Assembly: GCA_049287565.1 (NCBI GenBank)
Contig: JBAQGA010000239.1
Coordinates: 1,522-65,521, forward strand
DNA: 64,000 nt
Reading direction: 5' to 3'
Source: Candidatus Aminicenantales bacterium
Lineage (GTDB): Bacteria; Acidobacteriota; Aminicenantia; Aminicenantales; UBA8522
The position numbers and the translations under genes are program-made. The stretch's first letter is position 1. The number at the start of each line of letters is the position of its first letter. The notes under the pieces were generated by a model. The model saw only the letters and a program-made list of their open reading frames with translations. It made no database searches and was not told the DNA's origin. Below, one piece after another: positions 11,257 to 30,409 of the stretch.

Positions 11257-11288
11257 TCGTTCGCGGGATAGCGGACGCTTCCCCTGAA

Positions 11289-11317: not shown

Positions 11318-11319
11318 AG

Positions 11320-14531: not shown

Positions 14532-14607
14532 ACCGGCGCGCCCCGGCCGGAACGAGTTCCGTTTCTGAAATGTGCTCCCGGCCGATGGTCTGAAAGGACG
14601 AACGGAA

Positions 14608-17316
14608 ATGAATCCACTTCCTCCCGTGCGCCTGCGCTGTGAATACCTGGACAATCCGATCGGCTTGGGTACCGGAGCGCCGCGTTTCTCCTGGGTGCCG
14701 GAACATCCCCGTCGTGGAGCCAGACAGGCCGGCTATCAGGTCATTGTCTCCCCGGAGCGAGATTTTTTGCAGAAAGGGATAGGAGATTACTGGGACAGCC
14801 AAAGGGTGGGGTCGGAGCGGACTTCAGGCATTTCCTACGAAGGGGCCCCGCTATGGAGCGGAAAGCGCTATTTTTGGCGGCTGCGCTGGTGGGACGAGGA
14901 GGGGAACATCAGCCCCTGGAGCGAAACGTCTTGGTTCGAGATGGGCCTGCTCCTGAAGAGGGACTGGAAGGCCAAATGGATCAGCCGGCCGAAGCTGGCC
15001 GAGTTCACCTCTCGCGGGAACGTGATGCAGGGTGTATATTCCGGGGATTTTGTCCAGAGTCTGGCCATCTACCTGCGGAAGGAATTCGAGGTCAAGGGTG
15101 CCGTCCGCCGCGCCCGCGCCTATGTCTGCGGGCTCGGCTACTACGAACTCCGGCTCAACGGACGCAAAGTCGGCGATCATGTCCTCGACCCGGCCCAAAC
15201 CGACTACCGAAAAATCGCCCTTTATTCCGTTTTCGACATCACCGCTCACATCCGGGAAAGGAATGCGCTGGCCGTCATCCTCGGCAACGGCCGACACATC
15301 AAGAACTTCGGCTACGGCAAGCCGCGGCTTCTCCTCCAGCTCCATCTGGAGAGAGAGAACGAGCTCGTCGACCGGATCGACAGCGATGGGACCTGGAAAG
15401 CCAACTCCGGTCCCCTCCTGGAAAACGGCCTTTACTCAGGCGAGCGCTATGACGCCAGGCTTGAATGGGAGGATTGGGACGTGCCGGGATTCGACGACTC
15501 GTCTTGGGAAGAGGCGGAGGTCGTCTCCGGTCCGTCCGTGGCTCCCCAAGTGCTCCCTCCGATACAGGTCGTCGAAACGCTTCGACCGGTCAATCTATGG
15601 ACCCCGCGGCCGGGTGCTTATGTCTTCGATTTCGGCCAGAATTTTTCCGGCTGGGTCAGGCTCAAGACCCGGGGACCGCGCGGACGGGAGATTCGGCTCC
15701 GGCATGCCGAGCTCATCTATGAGGACGGCACGATCAACGTCCTGCCCAATCAGAACGCCGAGGCCACCGATGTCTTTATCCTAAAGGGACAGGGTGAGGA
15801 AGTCTACGAGCCGAGGTTCACCTATCACGGATTCCGTTATGCCGAGGTCGAAGGCTTGCCCGGAGAGCCCGAGCCGGACACCCTGGAGGGGTGTTTCGTC
15901 CATAGCGATGTCGAGAGGAGCGGAGACTTCCGCTGCTCGCATTCTCTTCTCAACCGGGTCCATCAGAACATCATCTGGGGTCAGCTGTCCAACTTGATGA
16001 GCATCCCGACGGATTGCCCCCAGCGCGATGAACGACACGGCTGGCTCGGGGACGCCCATCTTGCCGCCGAGGAGTCCATCCTCAATTTCGACATGTCCTC
16101 TTTTTATAGCAAATTCCTGGAGGATATCCGGTTGTCCCAAAAAGAGGACGGCAGTCTTCCCGACACCGTCCCTCCCTACATCCAGCGGCTTTACCCGGCC
16201 GATCCGGCCTGGGGAATCGCCTATTTGGAACTGGCCTGGCTGATGTTTCTCTACTTCGGGGACGAGCGTGTCTTGCAGAAGCATTACGCGGGGATGAAAA
16301 AATACGTCGACCACCTCAGCAGAAACACGGAAGAATACATCGTCCAGAAGCTCGGCAAGTACGGTGACTGGTGTCCGCCGGGAAGCATAGTCCCCAAAAA
16401 GACCCCTCTCGAACTGACTTCGACGTGGTCCTATTATCGAGCCGCCGGCCTTTTAGCCACATTTGCCAGGGTTTTGGGCCGGACAGATGACAGCCGGGAC
16501 TATGGCCGGCTGGCCGAAGCCATCAAGGCCGCTTTCAACGCCAGATTCCTGGCCGGCGACCAGTACGCCGCTTTCCGGGTCGGCCCGGCCGATAAAAGCC
16601 CCGACCAATCCTCGAACGTGCTGCCGTTGGCCCTGGATATGGTCCCTGAGGATAAAAAGAACAAAGTCCTCACCCGCCTGCTCGACAGCGTCGTCAAGGA
16701 GTGGGATTATCACCTCGACACCGGGATCATTGGAACGCGGTACCTGCTCGACGTTTTAACCGATAACGGCCACGGAGAGACCGCCTTCCGGGTGGCCACC
16801 CAGCACACCTATCCGGGTTGGGGCTTCATGGTCGAAGCCGGGGCGACGACCCTCTGGGAACGTTGGGAGAAGCTAACCGGAGGCGGAATGAATTCTCACA
16901 ATCACATCATGCTCGGAAGCATCGATGCCTGGCTCTACCGCACGGTGGCCGGACTGAGGTGTGTCGCTCCTGGGTGGATGAAGATGGTCATCCGGCCGCT
17001 GCTCTGCGCCGGTCTCAACGAGGCCTCAGCCAATGTCCTGACCGTCCGGGGGCCGGCCGAAGTCGCCTGGCGGAAAGAGGAACGGGACTTCGAGCTCAGT
17101 GCTCGTATCCCGGTCGGTGCCGAGGCGGAGATCCATATTCCCGGACGCTCTGCCGGAAGCCTGATCAAGGAAAGTGGAACGGTGATCTGGAGAGATGGCC
17201 AAGCGGCGAACCTTCCGCCCGAGATTTCCGGCCCGAAAGAAGCCGGCCCATATATGCTTTTCACCGTCGGGAGCGGCCGCTACTCTTTCCGCAGCGAATC
17301 GGACGCGGCCCTTTGA
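14608..17316 (+). CDS. Alpha-L-rhamnosidase (glycoside hydrolase family 78)
   Basis: GH78 N-domain plus six-hairpin catalytic domain. Conserved DCPQRDERHGWLGD block. About 900 aa. Adjacent to rhaBA. Confidence 0.85.
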   Translation: MNPLPPVRLRCEYLDNPIGLGTGAPRFSWVPEHPRRGARQAGYQVIVSPERDFLQKGIGDYWDSQRVGSERTSGISYEGAPLWSGKRYFWRLRWWDEEGNISPWSETSWFEMGLLLKRDWKAKWISRPKLAEFTSRGNVMQGVYSGDFVQSLAIYLRKEFEVKGAVRRARAYVCGLGYYELRLNGRKVGDHVLDPAQTDYRKIALYSVFDITAHIRERNALAVILGNGRHIKNFGYGKPRLLLQLHLERENELVDRIDSDGTWKANSGPLLENGLYSGERYDARLEWEDWDVPGFDDSSWEEAEVVSGPSVAPQVLPPIQVVETLRPVNLWTPRPGAYVFDFGQNFSGWVRLKTRGPRGREIRLRHAELIYEDGTINVLPNQNAEATDVFILKGQGEEVYEPRFTYHGFRYAEVEGLPGEPEPDTLEGCFVHSDVERSGDFRCSHSLLNRVHQNIIWGQLSNLMSIPTDCPQRDERHGWLGDAHLAAEESILNFDMSSFYSKFLEDIRLSQKEDGSLPDTVPPYIQRLYPADPAWGIAYLELAWLMFLYFGDERVLQKHYAGMKKYVDHLSRNTEEYIVQKLGKYGDWCPPGSIVPKKTPLELTSTWSYYRAAGLLATFARVLGRTDDSRDYGRLAEAIKAAFNARFLAGDQYAAFRVGPADKSPDQSSNVLPLALDMVPEDKKNKVLTRLLDSVVKEWDYHLDTGIIGTRYLLDVLTDNGHGETAFRVATQHTYPGWGFMVEAGATTLWERWEKLTGGGMNSHNHIMLGSIDAWLYRTVAGLRCVAPGWMKMVIRPLLCAGLNEASANVLTVRGPAEVAWRKEERDFELSARIPVGAEAEIHIPGRSAGSLIKESGTVIWRDGQAANLPPEISGPKEAGPYMLFTVGSGRYSFRSESDAAL

Positions 17317-17365
17317 TTATGCCCGCCATTCCCTCTAAAATGAAAGCCGAGAAAGGAGAATCTCC

Positions 17366-17503
17366 ATGGACATGCTGAACAAAGAGGTCCGGGAGGCGAC
17401 CCAAAAAAAGTTCGACAACGAGACCGTCTTCATAGAAGGGGCGGTGCCCGAGGGCGTCTTTCTCGGCCACATCCTCAAGGCCGTCGCTCAGGATCGGAAG
17501 TAG
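17366..17503 (+). CDS. Small ORF (45 aa) with a strong ribosome-binding site, just upstream of the acyl-CoA synthetase
   Basis: AAAGGAGAA ribosome-binding site 6 nt before the ATG. Sequence MDMLNKEVREATQKKFDNETVFIEGAVPEGVFLGHILKAVAQDRK. Its stop lies 3 nt before the next gene's ATG. Not in the ORF track (under 60 aa). Confidence 0.35.
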   Translation: MDMLNKEVREATQKKFDNETVFIEGAVPEGVFLGHILKAVAQDRK

Positions 17504-17506
17504 GTT

Positions 17507-19639
17507 ATGTCCAAGCTCGATTCCCTCTTCTATCCGAGGTCGATCGCCGTTATCGGCGCCTCCCGCCGGCCCGGAAGCGTCGGTCATTCGCTGCTCGCCA
17601 ATCTTTTGATGAACCGCTACCAGGGGATCATCTATCCGGTCAATCCGAATGCTTCGAGCGTCCTGAGCATCAAGTGTTATCCCCGTGTGCTCGAGATCTC
17701 GGACGACGTGGACCTGGCGGTCGTCATCGTCCCCAGCCGGTTCGTCGCCTCCGTCATCGAGGACTGCGGGAGGATGGGGATCAAGGCCGCCATCGTCATC
17801 AGCGCGGGCTTCAAGGAGATCGGGGGCAAAGGCGTCGACCTGGAACAGCGCGTTCTGGAGGTCAGCCGCAAGTATGACATCGCCCTGGTCGGGCCCAACT
17901 GCCTGGGGATCATCAACACCGACCCCGTCTCCCAGATGAGCGCGACCTTCGCCACGGACATGCCGAAGGTGGGAAACATCGGTTTCATCTCCCAGAGCGG
18001 GGCGCTCTGCGTGGCCGTGCTCAACTACGCCCAGGAAGCCAATATCGGCTTCTCCAAGTTCATCAGCATGGGGAACAAGGCCGGCGTCGGAGAGAACGAA
18101 CTCCTCTCCTACCTCAAGTCCGACCCCAAGACCGATGTCATTCTCATGTACCTCGAGGACCTGGTTAATGGCCGCGAGTTCATGCGGATCGCCCGCGAGA
18201 CCACCGGCTCCATCAAAAGGCCCAAACCGATCATCGCCCTCAAGGCCGGACGGACTTTGCCCGGCGCCCGGGCCGCGTCCTCCCATACCGGCTCGCTGGC
18301 CGGTTCGGACAGGGTTTACGACGCCATCTTTGAGCAGTCCGGTGTTCTGCGCGTGGAAACACTCGAGGAGCTCTTCGATTATGTCAAAGGGTTTTCCCGT
18401 CAGCCGCTTCCCGAAGGCCCCAACGTCGGAATCGTCACCAACTCCGGCGGCCCGGGTATCCTGGCCACTGATGCCTGCATCCGCCACGGTCTGAACATCC
18501 CTCCGCTCAGCGGCCCCACGGTTTCGAAGTTGCGCCGGGTCCTGCCGAAGACGGCCAGCCTTCATAATCCCGTGGACCTGGTGGCCGAGGCTCAGGCCGA
18601 GCAGTATGAAGCCGCCTTGAGGTCCGTCCTCAGGGATCGCCAGATCCATTCGGCCATCGTCATCCTCACCTCCACGGCCTTTACTGAAGTGGACAAGATC
18701 TCGGCGGCGGTCGTCAAGGTCGCCGGCGAATTCGAGAAGCCGGTCGTCAGCTGTCTTCTCGGCGTGTTCGACGTTTCCAAGGGGATCGAGATCCTCGAAG
18801 CCGACGGGATTCCCAACTACCGTTTTCCCGAATCGGCAGCCCGGGTTCTCTCCGAGATGGCCAAGTTCACGCTCTGGCGCGGCCGGCCGCAGACGCGCGC
18901 CCGGGCTTATCGCGTCGATAAGGTCAAGGTCAAAGCGATCTTTGACGCGGTTAAGAAAGAAGGCCGTCGGTTTCTGCTCGAGCAGGAAGCCTATGACGTT
19001 CTCCGGGCCTATCGCTTCCCGGTGATCGAGTCGCGGCTCGCCGGGACCGAGGGCGAGGCCGCCGAGGCCGCCCGGAAGATCGGCTTTCCGGTTGTCCTGA
19101 AGATCGCCTCGGCCGATGTCGTCCACAAGTTCGATTTTGACGCTGTCCGGCTCGACCTCAAGGACGAGGCCGAGGTCAGGCAGGCCTACCGGGAGATTCT
19201 GAAAAACGTCCGCCGCCGCAAAAGGAATGCCCGGATCGCCGGGGTCACCGTCGAGAAGATGGCCCGGCCGGGAAAAGAGATCATCCTGGGCATGAGCCGA
19301 GACCTCCAGTTCGGGCCGGTCCTGATGTTCGGCTTGGGCGGCATCTATGTCGAAGCCCTCGAGGATGTCTCCTTCCGCCTGGCGCCTATCCGTGAATATT
19401 CGGCCCTGGCCATGATCAGGAAGACAAAGACCCACAAGATCCTGGAAGGTTTTCGGGGCGGGCCCGTCTATGACCTGGAGGCCATCGCCGAATGCCTGAA
19501 AAAACTGTCCCAACTGGTCGTCGATTTCGAGGACATCCAGGAGCTGGACATCAACCCGCTGTTCGTCTACGAGAAAGGACAGGGCTGCCGCGTCGTCGAC
19601 GCCCGGATCGTCATCAAAGACGACGTCCACCGTCCATAG
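17507..19639 (+). CDS. Acetyl/acyl-CoA synthetase (ADP/NDP-forming), fused alpha+beta
   Basis: N-terminal CoA-binding Rossmann domain (SIAVIGASRRPGSVG). A succinyl-CoA-synthetase-like ligase domain. A C-terminal ATP-grasp domain (GFPVVLKIAS...). 710 aa. The antisense ORF 17261..19630 is rejected. Confidence 0.85.
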   Translation: MSKLDSLFYPRSIAVIGASRRPGSVGHSLLANLLMNRYQGIIYPVNPNASSVLSIKCYPRVLEISDDVDLAVVIVPSRFVASVIEDCGRMGIKAAIVISAGFKEIGGKGVDLEQRVLEVSRKYDIALVGPNCLGIINTDPVSQMSATFATDMPKVGNIGFISQSGALCVAVLNYAQEANIGFSKFISMGNKAGVGENELLSYLKSDPKTDVILMYLEDLVNGREFMRIARETTGSIKRPKPIIALKAGRTLPGARAASSHTGSLAGSDRVYDAIFEQSGVLRVETLEELFDYVKGFSRQPLPEGPNVGIVTNSGGPGILATDACIRHGLNIPPLSGPTVSKLRRVLPKTASLHNPVDLVAEAQAEQYEAALRSVLRDRQIHSAIVILTSTAFTEVDKISAAVVKVAGEFEKPVVSCLLGVFDVSKGIEILEADGIPNYRFPESAARVLSEMAKFTLWRGRPQTRARAYRVDKVKVKAIFDAVKKEGRRFLLEQEAYDVLRAYRFPVIESRLAGTEGEAAEAARKIGFPVVLKIASADVVHKFDFDAVRLDLKDEAEVRQAYREILKNVRRRKRNARIAGVTVEKMARPGKEIILGMSRDLQFGPVLMFGLGGIYVEALEDVSFRLAPIREYSALAMIRKTKTHKILEGFRGGPVYDLEAIAECLKKLSQLVVDFEDIQELDINPLFVYEKGQGCRVVDARIVIKDDVHRP

Positions 19640-19681
19640 TCCCGATTTATCGAGATTGTGGTATAATATTGACCTTTGATA

Positions 19682-20977
19682 ATGGCCTTATTTCAGAAAA
19701 AGAAAAGAACGCGGACCTGCATCATCGGCCTGGACGGAGTCCCCTACTCTCTCGTCCTCGAGCTGGCCGACCGGGGGATTATGCCGTCGTTGGCCGGACT
19801 CCTCAAGAGCGGCCACCTGCACAGGATGAAGGCCAGCCTCCCCGAGATCTCGGCCGTGTCCTGGACGGATTTCATGACCGGTGTGGATTCCGGCTCCCAC
19901 GGCATCTTCGGGTTCAGCGACCTCAAGCCCGGCTCCTACGGGATGCGTTTCCCCAATTTTTCCGACGTCAAGCGGGAGACCATCTGGGACATCCTGGGGA
20001 AGCAGGGACGGAAATCGATCATCATCAACCAGCCCTCGACCTATCCGGCCCGTCCCCTTAACGGCGTGCTGATTGCGGGGTTCGTCGCCCTCGACCTCGC
20101 CAAAGCCGTCTTCCCCCTGTCACAGAAAACAGCGCTGGAGCGGCTGGGCTACCGGATCGATATCGATACCATGAAGTCCCGGGAAGACCACGCCTTCCTC
20201 TGGCAGGAGCTCCAGACGACCCTGGACGGCCGGGAGAAGGCGCTGGACCACTTCTGGAAAGAGGACTGGGATTATTTCGAGTTCGTCATCACCGGGACCG
20301 ACAGGCTCCATCATTTTCTCTGGAACGCCTATGCGGATGAAAGCCATTCCTTTCATGCCAAATTCCTGGATTATTACCGCCGGGTCGACGGGATCATCGG
20401 CCGGATCGTCCGCTCCTTCCGCAGCTTGAGGGGAAGCGACGGCGGCCTCCATCTCCTTTCCGATCACGGCTTCTGTCAGATCGAGCAGGAGGTCTATCTC
20501 AACGCCTGGCTCGAGGAGAAAGGTTATCTCCGCTTCAGCGGCGAGACGCCCGGCGAACTCGGAGACATCGCCGCCGGCAGCGTCGCCTTCGCCCTGGACC
20601 CGAACCGGATCTATCTTCACCTCGTGGATCGTTTTCCAAAAGGCGCCGTCACTCCGGCCGACCGGCCGGCGCTGAAAGAAAGAATCTCCCGGGAACTCAA
20701 GGAGCTGACCTTTGAGGGTCGTCCGGTCATCCGCCGCGTCTTCGATGCGGAGAAGACCTATTCCGGTCCGTTTGTCCCCTCCGGGCCCGACCTCCTCGTC
20801 CTGGCCGAACCCGGTTTCGACCTCAAAGGGTCGATCAAGAAGAAAGATGTTTTCGGCCGGACCAACCTGGAAGGCATGCATACCTGGGACGACGCCTTCT
20901 TCTGGGCTGACCGGAAGGTTGGAGACGACCTGAGGATCAGTCAGCTGTCCGCCCACATCCTGAGCCATTTCTCATGA
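19682..20977 (+). CDS. Alkaline-phosphatase superfamily, type I phosphodiesterase/nucleotide pyrophosphatase (NPP) family protein, cytoplasmic paralog
   Basis: Shares IIGLDG, a Thr-nucleophile region (SAVSWTDFMTGVDSGSHGIFGF), LLSDHGF and a C-terminal GMHTWDD metal-ligand motif with the two downstream paralogs. No signal peptide. 431 aa. Confidence 0.7.
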   Translation: MALFQKKKRTRTCIIGLDGVPYSLVLELADRGIMPSLAGLLKSGHLHRMKASLPEISAVSWTDFMTGVDSGSHGIFGFSDLKPGSYGMRFPNFSDVKRETIWDILGKQGRKSIIINQPSTYPARPLNGVLIAGFVALDLAKAVFPLSQKTALERLGYRIDIDTMKSREDHAFLWQELQTTLDGREKALDHFWKEDWDYFEFVITGTDRLHHFLWNAYADESHSFHAKFLDYYRRVDGIIGRIVRSFRSLRGSDGGLHLLSDHGFCQIEQEVYLNAWLEEKGYLRFSGETPGELGDIAAGSVAFALDPNRIYLHLVDRFPKGAVTPADRPALKERISRELKELTFEGRPVIRRVFDAEKTYSGPFVPSGPDLLVLAEPGFDLKGSIKKKDVFGRTNLEGMHTWDDAFFWADRKVGDDLRISQLSAHILSHFS

Positions 20978-23118
20978 ACAAAAACTTTCCAACACGAACA
21001 CTTCTCATCGTTATAGGACTCCTTTTTTGTTGCGGCCTGCCCGCCCAGGCATACATAGGTCCGGGCGCCGGGTTCGCTTTTCTCTCCTCGTTCCTCGTCT
21101 TTTTCCTCACCTTTTTCCTGGCCGTTTTCTCTTTTCTTTCCTGGCCTTTTCGCCTGCTCATCCGGATGATCAAGGGCCGAAGAACACTCAAGGGTGCGCT
21201 CGTCGACAAGGTGGTCATCATCGGACTGGACGGGCTCGAACCCACGCTGGCCGAAAAATTCATGAGCGAGGGCAAGCTCCCCCATCTCTCCAGGCTTAAG
21301 AAAGAAGGCACCTACGCGCGCCTCCAGACAACGACCCCGGCCATCTCGCCGGTGGCCTGGTCGTCTTTCATGACCGGCTCCGAGCCGTCCAAACACAACA
21401 TCTTCGATTTTCTCAGCCGTGACCCGCGGACCTACCTCCCCTCCCTGTCGTCCGCCTATATCGGCCGTCCGAAAAGAGTCCTTTCCCTAGGGAAGTACTC
21501 CATTCCTCTGTCCAAGCCCGAGATCCGGGGGATGAGGAAGAGCGTACCCTTCTGGAAGACCCTGGGAGATGCCGGCATCTTCAGCACCGTCCTCCGCGTG
21601 CCGATCACCTTTCCGCCGGAAAAATTCTCCGGCCACCTCCTCTCCGGGATGTGCGCGCCGGACCTCAAGGGGAGCCAGGGAACGTTCGCTTTTTACACCA
21701 CCGACTCGGCCAAGATAACGAAGCGGGAGGGCGGAGTGGCCATTCCTGTCGAGGTCCGGGATGACCGGGTGGAAACCTATATTTCCGGGCCGGAAAATTC
21801 ACTCATCAAGAGCGCTCCGGAGATCCGCATCCCCCTGAGGATCGAGATCCGCCGGGAAAAACGCGAGGTCAGAGTCCACGTTTCCGGCCAACGATTCGAC
21901 CTCCGGGCCGGCGAGTTCTCTCCCTGGACCCGGATCGTCTTCAAGCCGGGGCTGGGGATGAAGGTCAAAGCCGTTGCCCGCTTCTATGTCTCCTCGCTCG
22001 ACCCTCACTTCGAGATGTACATGACCCCCTTGAACATCGATCCGGAGAAACCGGCCCTGCCCATCTCTCATCCTTTTATCTATTCCGTCTATCTCAGCAA
22101 GCTCCTGGGAAGTTTCATCACCCTCGGCGAAGCCAACGATACCTGGGCCCTGAACGAGGGCGCGCTCAAAGAGGCTCCCTTCCTCGATCTCACCTATTCC
22201 AACCACAGGGAATGGGAAGCGATGCTTTTCAACGCCCTGGCCAAGACGAAAAGAGGAACCGTTATCTGCGTTTTCGAGACCACCGACAGCATCCAACACA
22301 TGTTCTGGAGGTATCTGGACAAGGCCCATCCGGCCCTCCGGACGACGTCACCGGAGATGAGCTCCCAGGTCATCGAGGACCTCTACACAAAGATGGATGA
22401 CCTGATCGGCCGGGTCAGGGCCAAGCTCGACTCCCGGAGCGCCCTCATCGTCATGTCGGACCACGGCTTCAAGTCCTTCCGCCGGGGCGTCAACCTCAAC
22501 TCCTGGCTCTATCTCAACGGCTATCTGAGTCTCAAAGACGGGAAGACCGCAAGTGAAGAATGGTTCAAGGACGTGGATTGGGAGAAAACCAGAGCCTATG
22601 CCCTGGGGCTGGGAGGGCTGTACATCAACCAAAAGGGCCGGGAAGCAAAAGGCATCGTCGGGGCCGGAGAAGAAACGCGGGCCCTCAAGGCGGAACTGAT
22701 CACCAAACTCAACCGGCTTCGGGACGAGGCCGCCGGCGACGTCGCCATCACCGAGGCTTATGACCGTGACCGGATCTATGCAGGACCGTACGTCCATAAC
22801 GCGCCCGACCTCGTCATCGGCTACAACCAGGGGTTTCGGGCCTCCTGGGATTCGGTGACGGGAAAGGTCAACGGCACCATCTTCGAAGACAATATCAAGG
22901 CCTGGAGCGGCGACCACTGCATCGATCCCCGGCACGTCCCCGGCGTTTTCTACTTCAGCCGGAAGACGGCTTCCAAGACGCCTTCGATCATGGATGTGGC
23001 GCCGACCGTTCTGACCCTCTTCGGGCTTCCGGCGCCGGCCCACATGGACGGCCGTCCGCTCCTGGATTCGGAGGCGCCGCCTGAAACACCGCCAAGAAAT
23101 AAAGGAGATAAAAAATGA
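20974..23118 (+). CDS. NPP/alkaline-phosphatase family protein, membrane-anchored paralog with an inserted beta-rich domain
   Basis: N-terminal TM segments. VIIGLDGLEP, TTPAISPVAWSSFMTGSEPSKHNIF, VMSDHGFKSF and WSGDHCIDP motifs. An insert of about 250 aa relative to paralog 1. ATGA overlap with the upstream gene. Confidence 0.7.
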   Translation: MNKNFPTRTLLIVIGLLFCCGLPAQAYIGPGAGFAFLSSFLVFFLTFFLAVFSFLSWPFRLLIRMIKGRRTLKGALVDKVVIIGLDGLEPTLAEKFMSEGKLPHLSRLKKEGTYARLQTTTPAISPVAWSSFMTGSEPSKHNIFDFLSRDPRTYLPSLSSAYIGRPKRVLSLGKYSIPLSKPEIRGMRKSVPFWKTLGDAGIFSTVLRVPITFPPEKFSGHLLSGMCAPDLKGSQGTFAFYTTDSAKITKREGGVAIPVEVRDDRVETYISGPENSLIKSAPEIRIPLRIEIRREKREVRVHVSGQRFDLRAGEFSPWTRIVFKPGLGMKVKAVARFYVSSLDPHFEMYMTPLNIDPEKPALPISHPFIYSVYLSKLLGSFITLGEANDTWALNEGALKEAPFLDLTYSNHREWEAMLFNALAKTKRGTVICVFETTDSIQHMFWRYLDKAHPALRTTSPEMSSQVIEDLYTKMDDLIGRVRAKLDSRSALIVMSDHGFKSFRRGVNLNSWLYLNGYLSLKDGKTASEEWFKDVDWEKTRAYALGLGGLYINQKGREAKGIVGAGEETRALKAELITKLNRLRDEAAGDVAITEAYDRDRIYAGPYVHNAPDLVIGYNQGFRASWDSVTGKVNGTIFEDNIKAWSGDHCIDPRHVPGVFYFSRKTASKTPSIMDVAPTVLTLFGLPAPAHMDGRPLLDSEAPPETPPRNKGDKK

Positions 23119-25100
23119 GCAGCATGAATAGACGGGAATTCCTCAAACAAGGCCTGGCCGCCTCTTCCTTGCTGGCTGCCGGTAGCGGCCTCGCGCCTCT
23201 TCTTCGCGGCTCCGGCAGGAGCGCGACCAGGGCCAAGGTGCTGGTCCTCGGGTTCGACGGCCTGGACCCGAAGCTCCTCTATCGCTGGCTGGATGAAGGA
23301 AAACTGCCGTCCTTCGCCCGGCTCATCGCAGCCGGAGGTTTCCGGCCGCTCGGCACAAGCATTCCACCGCAAAGTCCAGTGGCCTGGTCGAATTTCATCA
23401 CCGGCACCGACCCGGGAGGTCACGGCATCTTTGACTTCATCCACCGCGACCCGAACACCTACATCCCTATTTTCTCCGCCACCCTCTCAACCGAGGCCAA
23501 GAAAGCACTCAAGATCGGCGACCTTGTGCTTCCCTTGAGCGGCGGCGAGGTCAAGAACCTGATCCAGGCGAAGGCGTTCTGGCAGGTCCTGGAAGAGCAC
23601 GATATCCCGGCCACCGTTTTCAAGATGCCTTCGAACTATCCACCCGTTCCGACCAAACAGCGGACCCTTTCCGGCATGGGTACGCCCGACCTCAAAGGAA
23701 GCTACGGAATCTCCTGTTTCTATACGACCGATCCCGATATGCCCAAGGGAGAGCTTTCTGGCGGGAGGGTTTATGAGGTCTACGTTATCGGGAACCGGGT
23801 CGAGGCCAAGCTTCCCGGACCGGTCAACACTTTCAAGAAAGACCGGCCGGAAGCCCTCATTGACTTTCAGGTCTTCGTCGATCCCGTCCATCCGATGGCC
23901 AAAGTCGTCCTGCCGGACCAGGAATTTATCATCAAGGAAAAGGAATGGAGCGGCTGGAAGAGGGTCAATTTCGGCCTCATCCCGACTCAGAGTGTAAGCG
24001 GGATCTGCATGTTCTACCTCAAGGAGGTCCGTCCCCATTTCAAGCTCTATGTCAGCCCCATCAATATCGACCCGGCTCATCCGGCCCAGCCGATCTCGAC
24101 TCCGGGAAGCTACGCCCAGGAGCTGGAGCGGGTCTTCGGGCCCTTCTTCACCAAGGGCCTTCCGGCCGACACCTCGGCCCTCGACAACAATGTCCTCGAC
24201 GAGGAAGAGTTCCTGGAGCAGGACGACATGATCCTGCGGGAGCGCGAGCAGATGTTCGACTACGAGTTCAAGCGTTTTGAATCCGGACTTCTTTTCTATT
24301 ACGTTTCGAGTACCGACCAACGTCAGCACATGTTCTGGCGTTTGCTGGACGAGATGCACCCGGAATACGACCCCCGGCTCGCCGCTCGCTACGGGCGGAC
24401 CATCGAAAACATCTACGTCGAAGCAGACCGCTTCCTCGGGCGGGTTCTGCCGAAGATCGACAAGGAAACTGTGCTCCTGGTCATGTCCGACCACGGATTC
24501 AATCCCTTCCGCCGGGCCTTCAACCTCAACACTTGGCTTTTCGAGAACGGATACCACAGGCTGCGCAACCCCTGGAAACAGGGGGAAGGGAGTTTCTTTG
24601 ATAACACCGATTGGTCGAGGACGAAAGCCTATGGGATCGGCCTCAACGGCCTCTATATCAACCAGAGGAGCCGGGAGAGAGAGGGAATCGTCAATCCCGG
24701 AGCCGACAGCGCGAATCTGATCCGGGAGATCGCCCAGAAGCTCGAACAGACGGTCGATCCCAAGACGGGTGAGCGGGCCATCCTCCGGGCTTTCATCTCC
24801 AAGGACGTCTATCACGGTTCCCAGATCGAACACGCCCCCGACATCATCTGCGGCTTCAACAAGGGCTATCGCATATCCTGGGATTCGCCCCTCGGCAAGT
24901 TCCCCAAAGATATCTTTTTAGATAACGGCGAGAAGTGGAGCGGCGACCATATGGGCGCTCCCGAGGTCCTCCCCGGGATCCTGGCCGCCAACCGCCCCAT
25001 CCGGGCCGACGCTCCGGCCCTCTACGACTTGACGGCCACGATCCTCGACTTATTCGGCCTCCCCAAGACGAAAGAGATGATCGGAAAACCCGTTTTTTGA
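23115..25100 (+). CDS. NPP/alkaline-phosphatase family protein, Tat-exported paralog
   Basis: Twin-arginine signal MNRREFLKQGLAASSLLAAGSGLA. LVLGFDGLDP, SIPPQSPVAWSNFITGTDPGGHGIF, VMSDHGFNPF and WSGDHMGAP motifs. ATGA overlap with the upstream gene. Confidence 0.7.
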   Translation: MSSMNRREFLKQGLAASSLLAAGSGLAPLLRGSGRSATRAKVLVLGFDGLDPKLLYRWLDEGKLPSFARLIAAGGFRPLGTSIPPQSPVAWSNFITGTDPGGHGIFDFIHRDPNTYIPIFSATLSTEAKKALKIGDLVLPLSGGEVKNLIQAKAFWQVLEEHDIPATVFKMPSNYPPVPTKQRTLSGMGTPDLKGSYGISCFYTTDPDMPKGELSGGRVYEVYVIGNRVEAKLPGPVNTFKKDRPEALIDFQVFVDPVHPMAKVVLPDQEFIIKEKEWSGWKRVNFGLIPTQSVSGICMFYLKEVRPHFKLYVSPINIDPAHPAQPISTPGSYAQELERVFGPFFTKGLPADTSALDNNVLDEEEFLEQDDMILREREQMFDYEFKRFESGLLFYYVSSTDQRQHMFWRLLDEMHPEYDPRLAARYGRTIENIYVEADRFLGRVLPKIDKETVLLVMSDHGFNPFRRAFNLNTWLFENGYHRLRNPWKQGEGSFFDNTDWSRTKAYGIGLNGLYINQRSREREGIVNPGADSANLIREIAQKLEQTVDPKTGERAILRAFISKDVYHGSQIEHAPDIICGFNKGYRISWDSPLGKFPKDIFLDNGEKWSGDHMGAPEVLPGILAANRPIRADAPALYDLTATILDLFGLPKTKEMIGKPVF

Positions 25101-25111
25101 GAGGAGATGGC

Positions 25112-25303
25112 ATGGGCAAATCGAAGATCAAACTGGACAAAGACCTGCTGGAGAAAGTTAGGAAATTCGCCAAAATCGTAGGCTACTCCTCTCCGGAGGA
25201 ATTCGTCACTCACTGTCTGGAGAAAGAGATCGCCCAGCTCGAGGAGTCCGACTCCGAAGAGGAAATCAAGAAGAAGCTCAAGGGACTCGGATATATATCC
25301 TGA
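25112..25303 (+). CDS. Small ribbon-helix-helix (CopG/Arc/MetJ-like) DNA-binding protein with an acidic tail
   Basis: GAGAGGAGA ribosome-binding site. KIKLDKDLLEKVRKFAKIVGYSSPEEFVTHCLEKEI fits the beta-strand/helix/helix RHH pattern. 63 aa. Its stop overlaps the next ATG. Confidence 0.45.
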   Translation: MGKSKIKLDKDLLEKVRKFAKIVGYSSPEEFVTHCLEKEIAQLEESDSEEEIKKKLKGLGYIS

Positions 25304-26130
25304 TGTGGCCCGTTAATACCGTCCTGGGCAAGCTCTTCGATCTCATCTTCCTGCCTTTCCGTTCGCTCAATCCGTGGGCCGGGATGGTCATCATCTCCCT
25401 TTTGACCGGGCTGCTTATGCTGTTCATCTATCGCTTGACTTCCAACCAAGGAGGCATCCGCGAGGTCAAGGACAAGATCAAAGCCCACCTCCTGGAACTT
25501 CGCCTCTATAAGGACAATATGGGCGTCACCATGAAAGCCCAGGGGCAGATCCTGCGCGCTAACCTGAGGTACATTGTCCTCAACTTCAAACCGCTGTTGG
25601 TGATGATCGTGCCTTTCGTCTTGGTCCTGGCCCAGCTCAACCTCTGGTTCGGATCCGAGCCGATGGAGGTCGGCCGGCCGGCCATCGTCAAGGTGGAACT
25701 GGCGCCCGAAATCAGGTTGCTGGATATGGAATTCGTGCTCGAGGCACCGCCGCAGATCACCGTCGAAACGCCGCCGCTCCGGCTTGAGGAACTCAAGGAA
25801 GTTGACTGGCGCATTCGTGCCGAATCGCCCGGCATCTTCGACCTCACCGTCAGGGCCGGGGAACAGAAGGTGCTTAAGACCGTGGTCGTGGAAGGCCGTC
25901 CCCTGCAAAAGATCTCCTCTCTCAAGGTGCGACGGAACCTCCTGGACGAGGTTCTCTATCCCGGGGAAAAACCGCTACCCGGGGGTAACCCGGTGCGTTC
26001 GGTCGAGCTCGCCTATCCGGCAGGCCGGCTCAATTTATTCAGGCTTCGTGTCCATTGGCTCATCGCCTATCTCGGATTATCGATTGTCTTCGGCTTCGCG
26101 CTGAAGCGGCCATTCAAGGTCGAGATCTGA
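25303..26130 (+). CDS. Membrane protein of unknown function (2 N-terminal and 1 C-terminal TM segments with a central soluble domain)
   Basis: Hydrophobic segments MVIISLLTGLLMLFIY, LLVMIVPFVLVLAQLNLWF and WLIAYLGLSIVFGFAL. Translationally coupled to the RHH gene. Confidence 0.5.
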   Translation: MWPVNTVLGKLFDLIFLPFRSLNPWAGMVIISLLTGLLMLFIYRLTSNQGGIREVKDKIKAHLLELRLYKDNMGVTMKAQGQILRANLRYIVLNFKPLLVMIVPFVLVLAQLNLWFGSEPMEVGRPAIVKVELAPEIRLLDMEFVLEAPPQITVETPPLRLEELKEVDWRIRAESPGIFDLTVRAGEQKVLKTVVVEGRPLQKISSLKVRRNLLDEVLYPGEKPLPGGNPVRSVELAYPAGRLNLFRLRVHWLIAYLGLSIVFGFALKRPFKVEI

Positions 26131-26152
26131 TCGCGCGAAAAAGGAGCAAGTC

Positions 26153-27277
26153 ATGAAGATCGAACAATTCCAGATGGAACGCATGCAGTCCACCTGGGAA
26201 AACGTGGTCGAATTCAACCTCTCAGAGAGCGGAGTCCATCCCCTCACCCTGGGACAGCTTCTCTCCGAACAAGAACTCCGGGAAGTCTTGGACATCGGCC
26301 TCGGTTACAGTCAGACCAACGGGACTCCCGAGCTCCGCGAACAGATCGTCCAGCTCTATCCGGGTGCCAACCTTGACCAGGTCCTGGTTACGGCCGGTTC
26401 ATCGGAAGCCAACTACCTCCTCATGTGGAGCAACCTTGAGCCCGGCGACGAGGTCGTTTTCATGATGCCCAACTACATGCAGATGTGGGGATTGGTGCGG
26501 GGCTTCGGGGCCGTCCTCAAGCCATTCTGGCTCAAAGAAGAGCTTGGCTGGGACCCCGATCTCGATGAACTCAGGGAACTGGTCACAGCCAGAACGAAAC
26601 TCATCATCGTCACCAACCCCAACAACCCGACCGGCGCTGTGTTGAGCCCGGAGGCCATGTCGGCCATCATCGATAACGCGGCCCGTGTCGGCGCTTGGAT
26701 CGTTGCCGACGAGGTCTATCAGGGGGCAGAACGCGAAGGCCCGATATCGCCGAGCTTCTGGGGGAAGTCCGACCGCGCCGTCATCGTCAACGGCCTGTCC
26801 AAAGCCTACGGTCTTCCCGGCGTCCGCATCGGCTGGATCGTCGGTGCGGAGGACTTTGTTCAGAAGACCTGGCCATACCATGACTACACCACCATCTCGC
26901 CGAGCATCCTCAGTGACCGCATCGCCCGGATCGCTCTCTCCCCCGTCAACCGGGAAAAGATCCTGGAGAGGACGCGCGGCATTCTCCGGAAGAATTTCCC
27001 GCTGATCGAGTCATGGCTGAACAAGCAGCCCGAGCTATTCTCCTACGTCCCGCCGCGGGCCGGAGCGATCGCCTACGCCCGCTATCATCATGAGATAAAC
27101 TCCACCGAGCTAGTCACCCGGCTCATCCGGGAGAAAAGCACCCTGATCGTGCCCGGCGACCACTTCGAGATGGACCGCTATCTCCGCTTCGGGTTCGGGT
27201 CCGAGCCGGAATATCTCGGGCACGGGCTGGCCTGCGTCGAGGAATTGTTCACCGAACTCAAGGCCGGCGGGCGCTAG
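26153..27277 (+). CDS. PLP-dependent aminotransferase, class I/II (aspartate aminotransferase fold)
   Basis: NPNNPTG motif. The SKAYGLPGVRIG region contains the PLP-binding lysine. 374 aa. Confidence 0.85.
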   Translation: MKIEQFQMERMQSTWENVVEFNLSESGVHPLTLGQLLSEQELREVLDIGLGYSQTNGTPELREQIVQLYPGANLDQVLVTAGSSEANYLLMWSNLEPGDEVVFMMPNYMQMWGLVRGFGAVLKPFWLKEELGWDPDLDELRELVTARTKLIIVTNPNNPTGAVLSPEAMSAIIDNAARVGAWIVADEVYQGAEREGPISPSFWGKSDRAVIVNGLSKAYGLPGVRIGWIVGAEDFVQKTWPYHDYTTISPSILSDRIARIALSPVNREKILERTRGILRKNFPLIESWLNKQPELFSYVPPRAGAIAYARYHHEINSTELVTRLIREKSTLIVPGDHFEMDRYLRFGFGSEPEYLGHGLACVEELFTELKAGGR

Positions 27278-27300
27278 GGTCTTTGTATCCGGTATTTCCG

Positions 27301-27340
27301 GCAGACGGGCCGAAATTCGGGGAAGATCGCCGTCTGTTTG
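27301..27340 (+). terminator. Weak candidate intrinsic terminator after the aminotransferase gene
   Basis: Inverted repeat CAGACGG...CCGTCTG followed by TTTG. The loop is large (about 20 nt), so the call is weak. Lies in the convergent gap before the outer-membrane protein gene. Confidence 0.25.
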
Positions 27341-27343
27341 GGG

Positions 27344-30300
27344 CTAGAATCCCGGCCAGAAGCTGAACTGGAAATACCAGCCCTTGTCCGGCCGGTCAAA
27401 TGGCTTGACATAGTTGACACCCACAACCAAATAGCCGAAGACGTTCACTCGCAGGCCGATACCGGCGCTGGAGATGGGCTTGCGTGTTCCTCCCAGGATC
27501 GTAGGCTTGTTGTTCTGGCCCTCTGAATCCGCGTACCAGGCGACACCCCAATCGTAAAAGAGGATCATGTCGATGGGAAAAGCCCCGTAATACCCTTTCC
27601 CTAGTCCCAGGACTCCCAGCAAAGGAAAGCGGAGCTCGGCGTTGGCGACCAGCATCTTAGAGCCGAAGAGTCTTCCCTGGTCAAACCCCTCTCCTCCGGG
27701 ATATTCGCTGCTGCCGTAAGAATAGTAATCGTAACCGCGGACGAAGCTTTCATAACCGATGTAAAGCGGGTACATCCGTTCGTCCTCGGCGTCCTTGCCG
27801 TAGCGGCCATAATGAAAGGCCCGGAAAGCGAGCGTGAACGGCCGGACGGGCATGAAATAACGCCGATAATCGGCCATGATCGTGTACATATTGAAGGAAC
27901 CAAAGGTGGGCGTCGCCTCAAGAATATAACTCTGACCCAGGATCGGCCCCGTTGCGCCGAAGAGCGAGCTGTCATAGACCAGGGCGAAGCTCGTGTAGGC
28001 ATAATGGATGCTCGGCGCCGAAGGAAGCTTCTCGACATCGCGATAGACCAGGCTTCCATCGTACAATGAGTAGGCCTGGGTGATGATCTCCGTATCGAAG
28101 TCGATATACTGATAGCCTGCGTACATTTCCACCCGCTGGACCTGATTGAATGGATAGGCCAAATAACCGCCGATCTGATAGTTGAACTGCCAGGCCAGGT
28201 ATTGCTCTTCGATATAGAGCTGATTGATCTCGTCGTAGGAAATGCCGTATCCCCCATACACATAGGGAATGCGGCCGACCACCGCTCCCCAATTGAGGCG
28301 GTGCCGCGAGTTCTGATAGCTGAGGATCCCGGTCAGGTCCTTCAACCGGCTCGAGGACTGGACGATGGTCGCGAGGGAATGGTATCCGAGCATGTCGGTC
28401 CAGTAGAGCCCGATTCCCCCGCCCGCATATGTCCCGAAGCGGTCGATGCCGACACCGATCTGCGGCGGGGCGACGTAGTCGAGGGTGAGCTTGGGCTTGT
28501 AAGAGGACTCGGGGAATTCGACCTGCTCCGGCAGACCGAAAAGCGGGTTTCTCAGGAGCCCGAGCAGGGCGCCGCCGGGCTGCTCGCGCGGCGGCAAGAC
28601 AGAGAGCAGCCTTCCTCCGAAGGTGGCAATATCGGGACTCCCCTGCAGGGCTTCATCCCGGTCGATCAGATAAATGGTGTAATAGCCGTCGTCATAACCG
28701 GAATAGGCCAGCCGTCCCGAGTCATGAGCAACCGAGATGGCCGGGCTCAGGTCGGTGATCCCGCTGACTCCCGTGTAGATGTTGGTCACTTGAAAGATCT
28801 TTTTAGAGGCCAGATCGATACGGTAGATGTCGGTTTTGCCGCTCTGATCGGAGATGAAGATCAGGCTGCGGTTGTCCTTCGTCCACTGGGGATTGGCGTT
28901 CTTGGCGGCCGAAAAAGCGGGGATGCGCTCGATCTTTCCGGAGACAGGATCGATCAGGGCCAACTCGTAGTCGCCCATGCTCAGCAAGGTCAGGTCGGTG
29001 GTGAAACGGTCGGTGACGAAAGCAATGCGTCGGCCGTCGGGGGACCAGCTCGGCTGGAGGTCGGCGAAGAAATCGTCGGTGAACGGCTTCAGATCCTTCG
29101 TTTCCAGGTCATAGAGAAAAAGGTCCGTCTTCCCGCCGGTCAGAGCTGAGAAGGCGATAAATCTCCCGTCCGGCGACCAGGCCGGGCTGAAGATCTCGTC
29201 CAGGCTCTTGAACTCGATCTCCTCGACGATCTTTCCTTTGTCCAGGTCGTAAAAGCTGAGGATGGGCTCTCCCTTCGAGATGGCGCCGAAGACAAAAGTC
29301 TTTCCCTGGGGGTCCCAGGCGCCGGCCGAGCGGATGAACTGGAGACTTTCGAACTCGGGGTCGACGGCGGTCTGGGTGATCTTGTCCATGACCTTGCCTG
29401 TCCGGGCGTCGGCCAGGTACAGGTCGATGGAAAAGAGGTCGCGAGTGGACAGAAACATGATGTGTCGGCCGTCGGGGCTGATAACGGGCGAGACGTTGTA
29501 AGGATTTTTTTCCTCCCCTTTAAGAAGAACCCGGCTGTTCGGGTCGGTAAGCTGCGTTCCTTCCAGGACCGGTTTGAAGGCTTTTTCATAAGCCTCATGC
29601 CAGTCTTTGGTCAGCTGTTCATAGGAGACCCCCAGGAGTTTGGTGACCACGGCTTCCATATCGCCCCCCCGTCCGATGCTCTTCATCAGACGGGAAATCG
29701 TTTCGTCTCCCCATCGTCCCGTCATATAAGCCAAGAGGGCTTGCCCGTAACGATAGGGGAAATATTTATAAGGGTTATTCAGTTTCTTCAGGGCAGGAAG
29801 AAAATTGCGGCGGCTGGCATCTCTCATCCACATGGCCGTATGCGGGTCGACCGATCCGATCGACAGGTATTCCGCCATTCCTTCGATGAACCACAGGGGA
29901 ACCTGGGCCAGGCCGAGACCCATCCCGCCCCCGCTTCCAGGCCCACCGGACGAGCTCATGTCGTATTGAAAGGCATGGACGAGCTCGTGGCCGATGACGT
30001 GATCGGTCTCGGCCGGTGACGTCCCGATGGGAAGGATGATCCGGCGTTTGAACGACTCCGTGACACCGCCCGTCCCTTCGCCGATCATTCCGGTCAGGGC
30101 AGTTGTCTGCTGGAAATGCGGGCTGCTGGCGTACAGGATCAGGGGCTGCCGTCCTTTGAGCTCATGGTTGAGCATTCTGGAGTAACGGGCATACCACCGT
30201 TCCGCCATGCGGGCCGATTCCTCGGCCACGCCCCTGAACTCCTGATAAAAATAAACGTCGAAATGCTTCGTCTTGATGATCTGGAAATCGAATTTCTGGT

Positions 30301-30409
30301 ATTGGACCTTGTTCCGGCCGAAATACTGGGCCTCGAGCGGCTGGCTGAGAAGCGACAAGGCCAAGGCAGCTATAAGAATCATAACGCCAAACTTTATTGT
30401 TTTGGACAT
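27344..30409 (-). CDS. Large outer-membrane protein: N-terminal HEXXH peptidase-like (MA clan) domain + TolB-like beta-propeller + C-terminal Omp85/D15 beta-barrel
   Basis: Signal peptide MSKTIKFGVMILIAALALSLLSQPLEA after a GAGGAGGG ribosome-binding site. HELVHAFQYD zinc-binding motif. PD40/TolB repeats (PAWSPDGRFIAF, PSWSPDGRRIAF). C-terminal Omp85 surface-antigen barrel (ANAELRFPL...) ending in an aromatic residue (FWPGF). Confidence 0.7.
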   Translation of the reverse strand: MSKTIKFGVMILIAALALSLLSQPLEAQYFGRNKVQYQKFDFQIIKTKHFDVYFYQEFRGVAEESARMAERWYARYSRMLNHELKGRQPLILYASSPHFQQTTALTGMIGEGTGGVTESFKRRIILPIGTSPAETDHVIGHELVHAFQYDMSSSGGPGSGGGMGLGLAQVPLWFIEGMAEYLSIGSVDPHTAMWMRDASRRNFLPALKKLNNPYKYFPYRYGQALLAYMTGRWGDETISRLMKSIGRGGDMEAVVTKLLGVSYEQLTKDWHEAYEKAFKPVLEGTQLTDPNSRVLLKGEEKNPYNVSPVISPDGRHIMFLSTRDLFSIDLYLADARTGKVMDKITQTAVDPEFESLQFIRSAGAWDPQGKTFVFGAISKGEPILSFYDLDKGKIVEEIEFKSLDEIFSPAWSPDGRFIAFSALTGGKTDLFLYDLETKDLKPFTDDFFADLQPSWSPDGRRIAFVTDRFTTDLTLLSMGDYELALIDPVSGKIERIPAFSAAKNANPQWTKDNRSLIFISDQSGKTDIYRIDLASKKIFQVTNIYTGVSGITDLSPAISVAHDSGRLAYSGYDDGYYTIYLIDRDEALQGSPDIATFGGRLLSVLPPREQPGGALLGLLRNPLFGLPEQVEFPESSYKPKLTLDYVAPPQIGVGIDRFGTYAGGGIGLYWTDMLGYHSLATIVQSSSRLKDLTGILSYQNSRHRLNWGAVVGRIPYVYGGYGISYDEINQLYIEEQYLAWQFNYQIGGYLAYPFNQVQRVEMYAGYQYIDFDTEIITQAYSLYDGSLVYRDVEKLPSAPSIHYAYTSFALVYDSSLFGATGPILGQSYILEATPTFGSFNMYTIMADYRRYFMPVRPFTLAFRAFHYGRYGKDAEDERMYPLYIGYESFVRGYDYYSYGSSEYPGGEGFDQGRLFGSKMLVANAELRFPLLGVLGLGKGYYGAFPIDMILFYDWGVAWYADSEGQNNKPTILGGTRKPISSAGIGLRVNVFGYLVVGVNYVKPFDRPDKGWYFQFSFWPGF

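Follow-up and report, generated by a model that had tools for sequence, protein, structure and literature searches.

The stretch analyzed here, called the window, comprises 64,000 nucleotides of contig JBAQGA010000239.1 from a Candidatus Aminicenantales bacterium, and our interest was in a densely packed run of co-directional genes on its plus strand (17366-27277) that encodes three paralogous alkaline-phosphatase-type (AlkP-type) enzymes of the nucleotide pyrophosphatase/phosphodiesterase (NPP) kind. This region was found to be a composite and not a single conserved unit of ten genes: at its centre (19659-26130) lies an envelope module with a promoter of its own, whereas the genes on either side, namely a 45-amino-acid remnant, an ADP-forming acyl-CoA synthetase (ACD) and an aminotransferase, are neighbours and not members of a pathway. 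The functional unit is a four-gene core, which encodes the membrane-anchored paralog NPP-B, the exported paralog NPP-C, a small ribbon-helix-helix-like (RHH-like) protein and a DUF106/EMC3-like membrane protein (MEM), and to which in Aminicenantes the soluble paralog NPP-A is added as a fifth gene. In our preferred reading, to which we assign a probability of roughly one half, the products of the core would form a transmembrane complex that acts on a membrane-associated substrate, and the flanking genes would have no part in it. An initial annotation of the window had described one ten-gene operon for a dedicated pathway; its observations were confirmed in part and its pathway interpretation was supported in part, as is laid out below.

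The boundaries of the module were redrawn by comparative synteny together with a conserved promoter. For this purpose 80 genome loci (NPP-C as seed), three loci from a protein index and 80 metagenome loci (MEM as seed) were compared, and all window proteins were mapped onto every fetched locus. Genomes outside the Aminicenantes belonged to Terriglobia, Desulfobacterota, Dadabacteria, Spirochaetia and Bacteroidota and are summarized as other lineages; the MEM-seeded metagenome loci were Aminicenantes-like alone (at least 49% identity) and confirmed the linkage without widening the taxonomic sampling. The RHH gene was present in 39/39 Aminicenantes genome loci, 38/40 loci of other lineages and 68/68 metagenome loci, MEM in 36/36 and 37/38 (being the seed of the metagenome set), NPP-B in 38/39, 36/40 and 31/31, and NPP-C, the seed in both genome sets, in 45/45 metagenome loci. 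NPP-A accompanied them in all 35 Aminicenantes genome loci and all 26 metagenome loci that could be compared, and in two of 33 loci elsewhere. The flanking genes showed a different distribution, with the aminotransferase in 25/33 Aminicenantes genome loci, 0/35 loci of other lineages and 43/54 metagenome loci, and ACD in 8/29, 0/28 and 10/23, respectively.

Over 170 related loci, the core was found in Aminicenantes and in all of the other lineages named, where its gene order is not constant: in Aminicenantes NPP-B is followed by NPP-C, RHH and MEM, in Terriglobia NPP-C, RHH and MEM precede NPP-B. A distant locus (L088) has the module in full once more, and in another (L085) the order is sulfatase, NPP-B, NPP-C, RHH and sulfotransferase. 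That the linkage outlasts rearrangement argues for selection on linkage. Synteny within one class could be inherited, and the four core genes might then be independent housekeeping genes that merely lie side by side; given that adjacency persists over at least six classes or phyla despite reordered genes (NPP-B before NPP-C, or after MEM), and that three independent kinds of gene fusion occur, such an explanation is hardly credible. NPP-B and NPP-C share 38% identity, as opposed to 48-64% between orthologs across other classes and phyla, which places their duplication before the split of those lineages. Within the class ortholog identity is unusually high (66-91%), and close relatives are nearly all labelled Aminicenantes; in line with the source of the window, its MEM shows 100% identity to a protein from a 'Candidatus Aminicenantales' metagenome-assembled genome. 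The closest genome relative (L004, DATKXS010000049.1, 96% identity) carries the label Candidatus Desulfaltia (Desulfobacterales), and this metagenome-assembled genome is probably mislabelled or mis-binned.

The promoter was recognized by its conservation across loci. In the window an extended -10 element, TGGTATAAT (19659-19667, plus strand), stands right after the ACD stop codon and ends 14 nucleotides before the ATG of NPP-A at 19682. A TA[TA]AAT hexamer, mostly in the form TGnTATAAT and often with TTGACA 17 nucleotides upstream, ends 10-14 nucleotides 5' of the NPP-A start codon in 29/33 Aminicenantes loci, independently of whether ACD, a thioredoxin-like gene, an HD-domain gene or another gene lies upstream. 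No Shine-Dalgarno sequence was found before the NPP-A ATG (window 19638-19681), and since the -10 element is so close to that codon a near-leaderless mRNA of the module's own is to be expected from this conserved sigma-70 promoter. A generic scan for promoters and terminators was uninformative, as its counts equalled the shuffled expectation, and the element surfaced only via the comparison between loci. Its position after ACD argues against a single obligatory operon that starts at the 45-amino-acid open reading frame.

The dense packing itself was borne out. Eight open reading frames were counted where ten genes had been stated, with gaps of three nucleotides between the 45-amino-acid frame and ACD, 42 between ACD and NPP-A, 11 between NPP-C and RHH and 22 between MEM and the aminotransferase, and with overlaps of four (NPP-A/NPP-B and NPP-B/NPP-C) and one (RHH/MEM). 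The identities given to ACD and to the aminotransferase of class I/II were likewise correct, and that of the RHH protein is probable. From short gaps, overlaps and common direction it had been suggested that the whole run is one operon for a dedicated catabolic pathway of a phosphonate, phosphoester or nucleotide-sugar-like substrate, in which the NPPs would work one after another with ACD, for a CoA-thioester step, and with the aminotransferase, for a transamination. In favour of this it may be added that co-transcription of the aminotransferase is probable here, to judge from the sequence before it, and that phosphonoacetate hydrolase PhnA (1ei6, 3szy) belongs to the same superfamily and is a structural neighbour of NPP-C comparable to the others. 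Yet ACD and the aminotransferase are patchy within Aminicenantes and missing from every locus outside, where the core persists; the conserved promoter lies inside the proposed operon; and no role is offered for the conserved RHH and DUF106-like proteins. With the PhnA model TIGR02335, which has a cutoff of 407.55 bits, two of the paralogs scored 23.9 and 17.1 bits and NPP-A gave no match, and an identity with PhnA was rejected on these scores; the paralogs differ from PhnA in the nucleophile as well and lack a phosphonate gene context. PhnW, the 2-aminoethylphosphonate transaminase, is a class V enzyme, whereas the aminotransferase of the window is of class I/II, with PRK07324, 3op7 and GntC as its nearest matches. 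A single pathway, and with it the phosphonate hypothesis, is therefore regarded as very improbable. As a practical lesson, tight gene spacing by itself overstated the size of the functional unit.

The three paralogs, NPP-A (19682-20977, 431 amino acids from the ATG at 19682), NPP-B (20974-23118, 714 amino acids) and NPP-C (23115-25100, 661 amino acids), all on the plus strand, match PF01663 with E-values of 6.5e-33, 1.3e-32 and 2.9e-33 (114-116 bits, gathering cutoff 23), while none matches PF00884 at E<=0.01 and the CxPxR motif is absent; the assignment to NPP-type enzymes distinct from sulfatases thus holds. The same two negatives led us to reject sulfatase membership. Assignments to the cofactor-independent phosphoglycerate mutase (iPGM) and PglZ types were rejected on scores and motifs, and a reading as a defence system was rejected as well, PADLOC models having matched 0/7 proteins. 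The nucleophile had been given as Thr. In a profile alignment of 100 homologs, PPQ-S-PVAW lies opposite PTK-T-FPNH of ENPP1, which carries the nucleophile Thr, so that Ser takes this position (S57 in NPP-A, S125 in NPP-B, S87 in NPP-C; motif PxxSP[VA]AW); among the 127 scorable of 150 family representatives it is Ser in 121 and Thr in six. The metal ligands of NPP-C (D48, D401, H405, D459, H460 and H612) are, together with S87, strictly or almost strictly conserved among 100 diverse homologs, and the same motifs were located in all three paralogs, which consequently look catalytically competent. The catalytic Asn of NPPs (N111 of the Xanthomonas enzyme, HGIxxN) appears to be replaced, F108 standing opposite the ENPP1 Asn (hgifDF versus HGIIDN) in what is a HMMER alignment only.

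NPP-B and NPP-C carry about 200-230 residues without counterpart in NPP-A, in accordance with the beta-rich insertion noted initially for the two larger copies. In the AlphaFold (AF2) model of NPP-C (predicted local distance difference test, pLDDT, 95; predicted template modelling score, pTM, 0.91) this insert consists of beta hairpins (about 110-150) and a beta sandwich (about 196-330). The best Foldseek matches of the model were Xanthomonas NPP, ENPP1, PhnA and PafA, and also ENPP6 and SPAP/PhoK, in each case over the core only, with E-values near 1e-10, a TM-score (on the target) of about 0.6 and 10-13% identity, and for the insert Foldseek found no counterpart in solved structures. Compared with NPPs (PF01663; Xanthomonas NPP 2gsn/7n1s, ENPP1-7), the paralogs have the same alpha/beta core, bimetal ligands and nucleophile position, but differ by Ser instead of Thr, by Phe at the place of the catalytic Asn, by the beta-sandwich insertion of NPP-B and NPP-C and by their low identity. 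Single-sequence phmmer searches with NPP-A and NPP-C against the PDB gave no match; with a profile of 100 sequences NPP and PhnA were picked up, but over no more than about 100 residues at the N-terminus. The subfamily is very large (15,815 clusters at 50% identity with E<=1e-3, of which 2,223 with E<=1e-30), and it combines a Ser nucleophile with an insert that lacks a solved counterpart, and it has no solved structure; in the literature searched no function of it was described. Two members of 1276-1351 amino acids (P0145, P0259) join NPP-type domains to C-terminal tetratricopeptide (TPR) repeats, in parallel to sulfatase-TPR proteins.

With regard to location, the paralogs are predicted to act on both sides of the inner membrane, as had been proposed, with NPP-A and NPP-B cytoplasmic and NPP-C exported according to their signals. 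NPP-A has no signal sequence, as stated initially; its homologs use the ATG that corresponds to 19682 and begin with MALFKKKK, and it lacks the large beta insert. The N-terminal anchor assigned to NPP-B was also found, although in the form of a two-segment hairpin with a basic stretch: residues 1 to about 75 contain a signal-like hydrophobic segment, AQA|Y (AxA|Y), the transmembrane (TM) segment YIGPGAGFAFLSSF and basic residues. The TM motif AY[IVA]GPGAGFA[FV]LSSF is almost invariant and is followed by WPFR with 5-7 basic residues; among orthologs it occurs in 27/31 from Aminicenantes and 31/34 from elsewhere, and 17/150 family representatives have it too, a number of them with AYIGPGAG as their very beginning. 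Most likely the anchor is N-out/C-in, or a hairpin, and leaves the catalytic domain on the cytoplasmic side, because the basic stretch follows the TM segment (positive-inside rule) and because of the fusions P0166 and P0172 described below. For NPP-C the Tat (twin-arginine translocation) signal was confirmed, MSSMNRREFLKQGLAASSLLAAG containing the motif NRREFLK (S/T-R-R-x-F-L-K type) and then an h-region; the NCBIfam and Pfam Tat-signal models gave no match for NPP-C of the window. RRxF[LI]K is present in 38/38 Aminicenantes orthologs, and outside of this group 22 strict lipoboxes, 12 hydrophobic segments followed by Cys and five Tat motifs were counted, so that of all 77 orthologs 65 have a Tat motif or a strict lipobox and 12 a hydrophobic segment with Cys. 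Export as predicted from these signals is conserved, and the route, Tat or lipoprotein, depends on the lineage.

An exported NPP-C might also be taken to mean that NPP-C, and perhaps NPP-B, are secreted phosphatases of the Pho type like PafA, PhoK and PhoX, with RHH as regulator and MEM as an accessory anchor without any insertase role, and the fold neighbours PafA and SPAP/PhoK would fit such phosphate scavenging. It is difficult to reconcile with a strictly co-conserved paralog that faces the cytoplasm, with the absence of PhoU, PstS and PhoBR among the annotated genes adjoining the module, with ortholog conservation as high as that reported above, and with fusions to MEM, RHH and sulfotransferase, which are unexpected for scavenging enzymes; we consider it decidedly unlikely.

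MEM (25303-26130, plus strand, 275 amino acids) had been recorded as a membrane protein, which is correct as far as it goes, and its identity was obtained by profile comparison. A profile of 42 MEM sequences found PDB 5c8j (Methanocaldococcus jannaschii MJ0480/Ylp1) with hmmsearch at E 3.2e-9 over residues 8-118, and hhalign with 18 Methanococcales PF01956 proteins gave 95.7% probability (E 9.6e-9) over TM1, coiled coil and TM2, the common motifs being [DN]Q where TM1 ends and KP where TM2 begins. PF01956 is matched by 18/42 members (best E 5.5e-5), the MEM of the window remaining below the gathering score (15.8 versus 27.1 bits), while PF02096 (YidC) is matched by 0/42; the JGI pipeline labels many MEM homologs 'DUF106 family'. 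In the AF2 model (pLDDT 77) helices comprise residues 24-46, 49-68, 73-116 and 252-266, which corresponds to TM1 (about 24-46), a cytosolic coiled coil in the form of a helical hairpin, TM2 up to about 116, a beta domain (about 120-250) resembling immunoglobulin (Ig)/filamin-type domains in Foldseek, and TM3 (252-266). As indirect hints at an N-out/C-in topology, Lys and Arg are abundant in the coiled-coil region and at the C-terminus, and exported NPP domains are fused at the N-terminus of MEM in P0184, P0262 and P0219. From profile and model MEM is thus assigned, as a bacterial homolog, to the DUF106-EMC3 branch of the Oxa1 superfamily, with a predicted periplasmic Ig-like insert. This family has been described as archaeal and eukaryotic (PMC5868721, PMC8675477, PMC5898192, PMC6098224, PMC8887752), and a literature search on COG3379, the AlkP superfamily, Aminicenantes enzymes and DUF106/PF01956/COG1422 found no publication on the module and no description of bacterial DUF106 proteins. 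In comparison with Ylp1/MJ0480 (DUF106, PF01956, COG1422) and its relatives EMC3, TMCO1 and GET1, MEM has a homologous TM1-coiled coil-TM2 unit, three TM segments and a putative N-out/C-in polarity, but differs in being bacterial, in the insert of about 130 amino acids between TM2 and TM3, in its Pfam score and in a gene neighbourhood of AlkP-type enzymes instead of secY or ribosomal genes. In the insertase picture described so far bacteria rely on YidC, and a broad bacterial DUF106 branch would bear on the evolution of the Oxa1 superfamily.

The small protein (25112-25303, plus strand, 63 amino acids) shows an RHH pattern, in which a predicted basic strand (K5-x-K7) leads to helix A and the invariant turn G24-Y-S-S27 to helix B, followed by an invariant C-terminal tail L56-x-G58-L-G-Y61-I (L-x-G-L-G-Y-I-S); invariant in the alignment are L12, G24, Y25, S27, E30, F31, E37, L56 and G58-Y61. 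RHH_1 was matched weakly in 6/21 members (best E 0.0046), the N-terminus of NikR weakly as well (E 0.0024), and no PDB entry below E 0.05. By analogy it is a probable RHH autoregulator whose tail would dock on the complex. In PutA a DNA-binding RHH domain is combined with an enzyme that associates with the membrane. The RHH of the module is likewise joined to a membrane-bound enzyme, physically so in P0172, which suggests autoregulation coupled to membrane association; it differs from PutA in that it is usually a separate protein with a unique LxGLGY[IL] tail and putative DNA binding.

A physical association of the core proteins is suggested by natural fusions. P0184, P0262 and P0219 start with a signal peptide, continue with an NPP domain and end in a complete MEM, the C-terminus of P0184 matching the MEM profile with 97.2% probability (E 4e-11, 220 columns), and they fit an N-out MEM as well as contact between a periplasmic enzyme and MEM. 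In P0172, which was found on two independent contigs, RHH with the tail RLQGLGYLS is fused in frame to the C-terminus of NPP-B, the MEM gene comes next and NPP-C is missing; in P0166 a cytoplasmic sulfotransferase domain of the type that uses 3'-phosphoadenosine 5'-phosphosulfate (PAPS), a hairpin and an NPP-B domain form one chain. At a further locus (L087) a mini-MEM of 137 amino acids without Ig insert lies directly 5' of an anchor-type NPP-B. Taken as sequence evidence, the NPP–MEM, NPP-B–RHH and sulfotransferase–NPP-B fusions point to one transmembrane complex. What is most notable about the module, built as it is from known superfamilies in a new combination, is that a DUF106/EMC3-like protein widespread among bacteria is coupled to AlkP-type enzymes, at the level of the genes and, in some organisms, also physically.

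Within the preferred reading NPP-B would be tethered at the cytoplasmic face by its N-out/C-in hairpin and NPP-C would reside in the periplasm; MEM would insert the NPP-B hairpin, hold it, or both, and dock NPP-C via its periplasmic side. At both leaflets the two enzymes would catalyse phosphoryl or phosphodiester transfer on a membrane-associated substrate, with phospho-Ser as the intermediate, and RHH would autoregulate the module, being titrated by binding to the complex, as in PutA. Sec-independent clients of YidC comprise M13 procoat, F0c and MscL, and hairpins with short loops are the client class of Oxa1-family insertases. The NPP-B anchor, predicted to be a hairpin of two helices joined in the periplasm by a very short turn, is similar to these, although MEM is not of the YidC type; we know of no arrangement in which a dedicated pair of client and insertase is encoded together. 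A more far-reaching version holds that several bacterial phyla have recruited a second Oxa1 protein, of archaeal/eukaryotic type, as the core of a dedicated enzyme complex, in which it would insert and hold the NPP-B hairpin, dock NPP-C by its N-terminal side or Ig-like domain and possibly scramble a lipid-linked substrate, with RHH reporting assembly to the promoter; this can be put forward tentatively only, and we rate it as possible but rather doubtful. A MEM with a candidate client or partner encoded alongside would provide a tractable system for client specificity in the Oxa1 superfamily.

Several points weigh against the preferred reading. For every member it draws on sequences and models; the topology of NPP-B was deduced from fusions and from the way charges are distributed, and profiles give the RHH assignment weak support. 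Around the promoter there is no direct or inverted repeat suited as an RHH operator, and L085 has no adjacent MEM in spite of its NPP-B, NPP-C and RHH genes. These bacteria presumably possess a canonical YidC too, and the reading does not explain why they would need another insertase. Finally, the aminotransferase may have a lineage-specific functional link to the module, considering its 22-nucleotide gap, a good ribosome-binding site and its presence in about 75-80% of Aminicenantes loci.

The same components could also be arranged for remodelling of lipids or lipid-linked glycans, with MEM mainly providing a scramblase or flippase groove, a kind of activity that has been reported within the Oxa1 family, through which a phospholipid, sulfolipid or polyprenyl-phosphate-linked intermediate moves between NPP-B and NPP-C, which trim or transfer a phospho head group. 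Paralogous enzymes on either leaflet and a groove protein of the Oxa1 type in between would suit this; ENPP2, ENPP6 and ENPP7, members of the NPP family, are lipid phosphodiesterases, and ENPP6 is among the fold matches of NPP-C. YidC has been described as a lipid scramblase as well as an insertase (PMC11997395). Neighbouring genes for Thr-type 'sulfatase'-TPR proteins similar to LtaS/EptA, for sulfotransferase and for glycosyltransferases, and for LPG_synthase_C in close relatives, point in the same direction. The proposal is entirely inferential, however, and the beta insert might just as well be the kind of cap domain that iPGM and phosphopentomutase have, suited to a small soluble substrate, so that we judge remodelling of this kind unlikely as it stands, and the transmembrane complex remains our preferred reading.

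The gene surroundings in other lineages bear on the possible substrate. In 29 non-Aminicenantes loci (for instance L064:6255-8138) the module is flanked by PF00884-TPR fusion proteins with Thr in place of the Cys of CxPxR; they resemble phosphotransferases of the LtaS/EptA type. The sulfotransferase gene of L085 (12403-12972) directly follows the RHH gene, and the link to sulfotransferases in P0166 and L085 hints at a possible involvement of PAPS or 3'-phosphoadenosine 5'-phosphate (PAP), or of sulfated envelope components. The NPP-B-RHH fusion gene of L089/L090 (6022-7794) lies beside genes for AA_kinase, GHMP-kinase, a Memo-AMMECR1 fusion and glycosyltransferases, which is a context of isoprenoid and glycan biosynthesis. 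Because sulfotransferase, LtaS-like 'sulfatase'-TPR, glycosyltransferase and LPG_synthase_C genes are nearby, there are hints of phospho- or sulfo-ester chemistry in the envelope and not of phosphonate catabolism. Placement at two faces and the fusions with MEM, RHH, sulfotransferase and TPR narrow down where the substrate should be sought.

As for the flanking genes, the 45-amino-acid open reading frame (17366-17503, plus strand), counted initially as a component of the cluster, lies outside the module and proved in comparison with relatives to be an in-frame deletion remnant. It retains the first 17 or so and the last 28 or so residues of a 230-amino-acid product (L002:3697-4389), a two-domain thioredoxin-fold protein (PF13192, CPYC) whose gene is intact at the same position in many relatives. 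A relative with 79% identity contains an independently decayed copy (L006:4249-4422), from which it follows that the thioredoxin-fold gene, as read from these sequences, is repeatedly lost.

ACD (17507-19639, plus strand, 710 amino acids), a fused alpha-beta protein and a lineage-specific neighbour outside the core, has the complete set of Pfam domains (CoA_binding, Succ_CoA_lig, Ligase_CoA_2, ATP-grasp_5) and matches a 4-hydroxybutyrate-CoA ligase (8wzu, its best PDB match, E 2e-195) over its full length, but is below every NCBIfam equivalog cutoff (NF045493, 775 versus 1300 bits; another, 577 versus 1200). The aminotransferase (26153-27277, plus strand, 374 amino acids) of the class I/II pyridoxal phosphate-dependent type matches PF00155 (E 9.5e-43) and 3op7 (E 1.5e-69), reaches 307 bits with PRK07324 against a cutoff of 476 and is preceded by the ribosome-binding site AAGGAG. 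Both are plausibly ordinary genes of amino-acid fermentation. An antisense frame of 789 amino acids across ACD (17261-19630, minus strand) is unsupported and represents a GC-rich shadow open reading frame.

Further downstream, a gene on the minus strand (27344-30442) encodes 1032 amino acids with a peptidase-MA-like domain, a PD40/TolB-type beta-propeller and an Omp85-like C-terminus, an unusual outer-membrane architecture, and adjoins the cluster in several relatives. In close relatives (L002:14144-16545) minus-strand genes for a PALP-family protein (433 amino acids) and for LPG_synthase_C (302 amino acids) are located between the aminotransferase gene and this gene; they are absent from the window (27277-27344). 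Upstream of the module lie genes of rhamnose utilisation (8451-17316), with an FGGY kinase (8451-9962), RhaA (9991-11256) and a rhamnosidase of glycoside hydrolase family 78 (GH78; 14572-17316), among which lie a gene with HEAT repeats (11320-13083) and one of the HD_5 (HD-GYP-like) kind (13077-14531); the GH78 rhamnosidase gene stands between HD_5 and the module in some relatives only.

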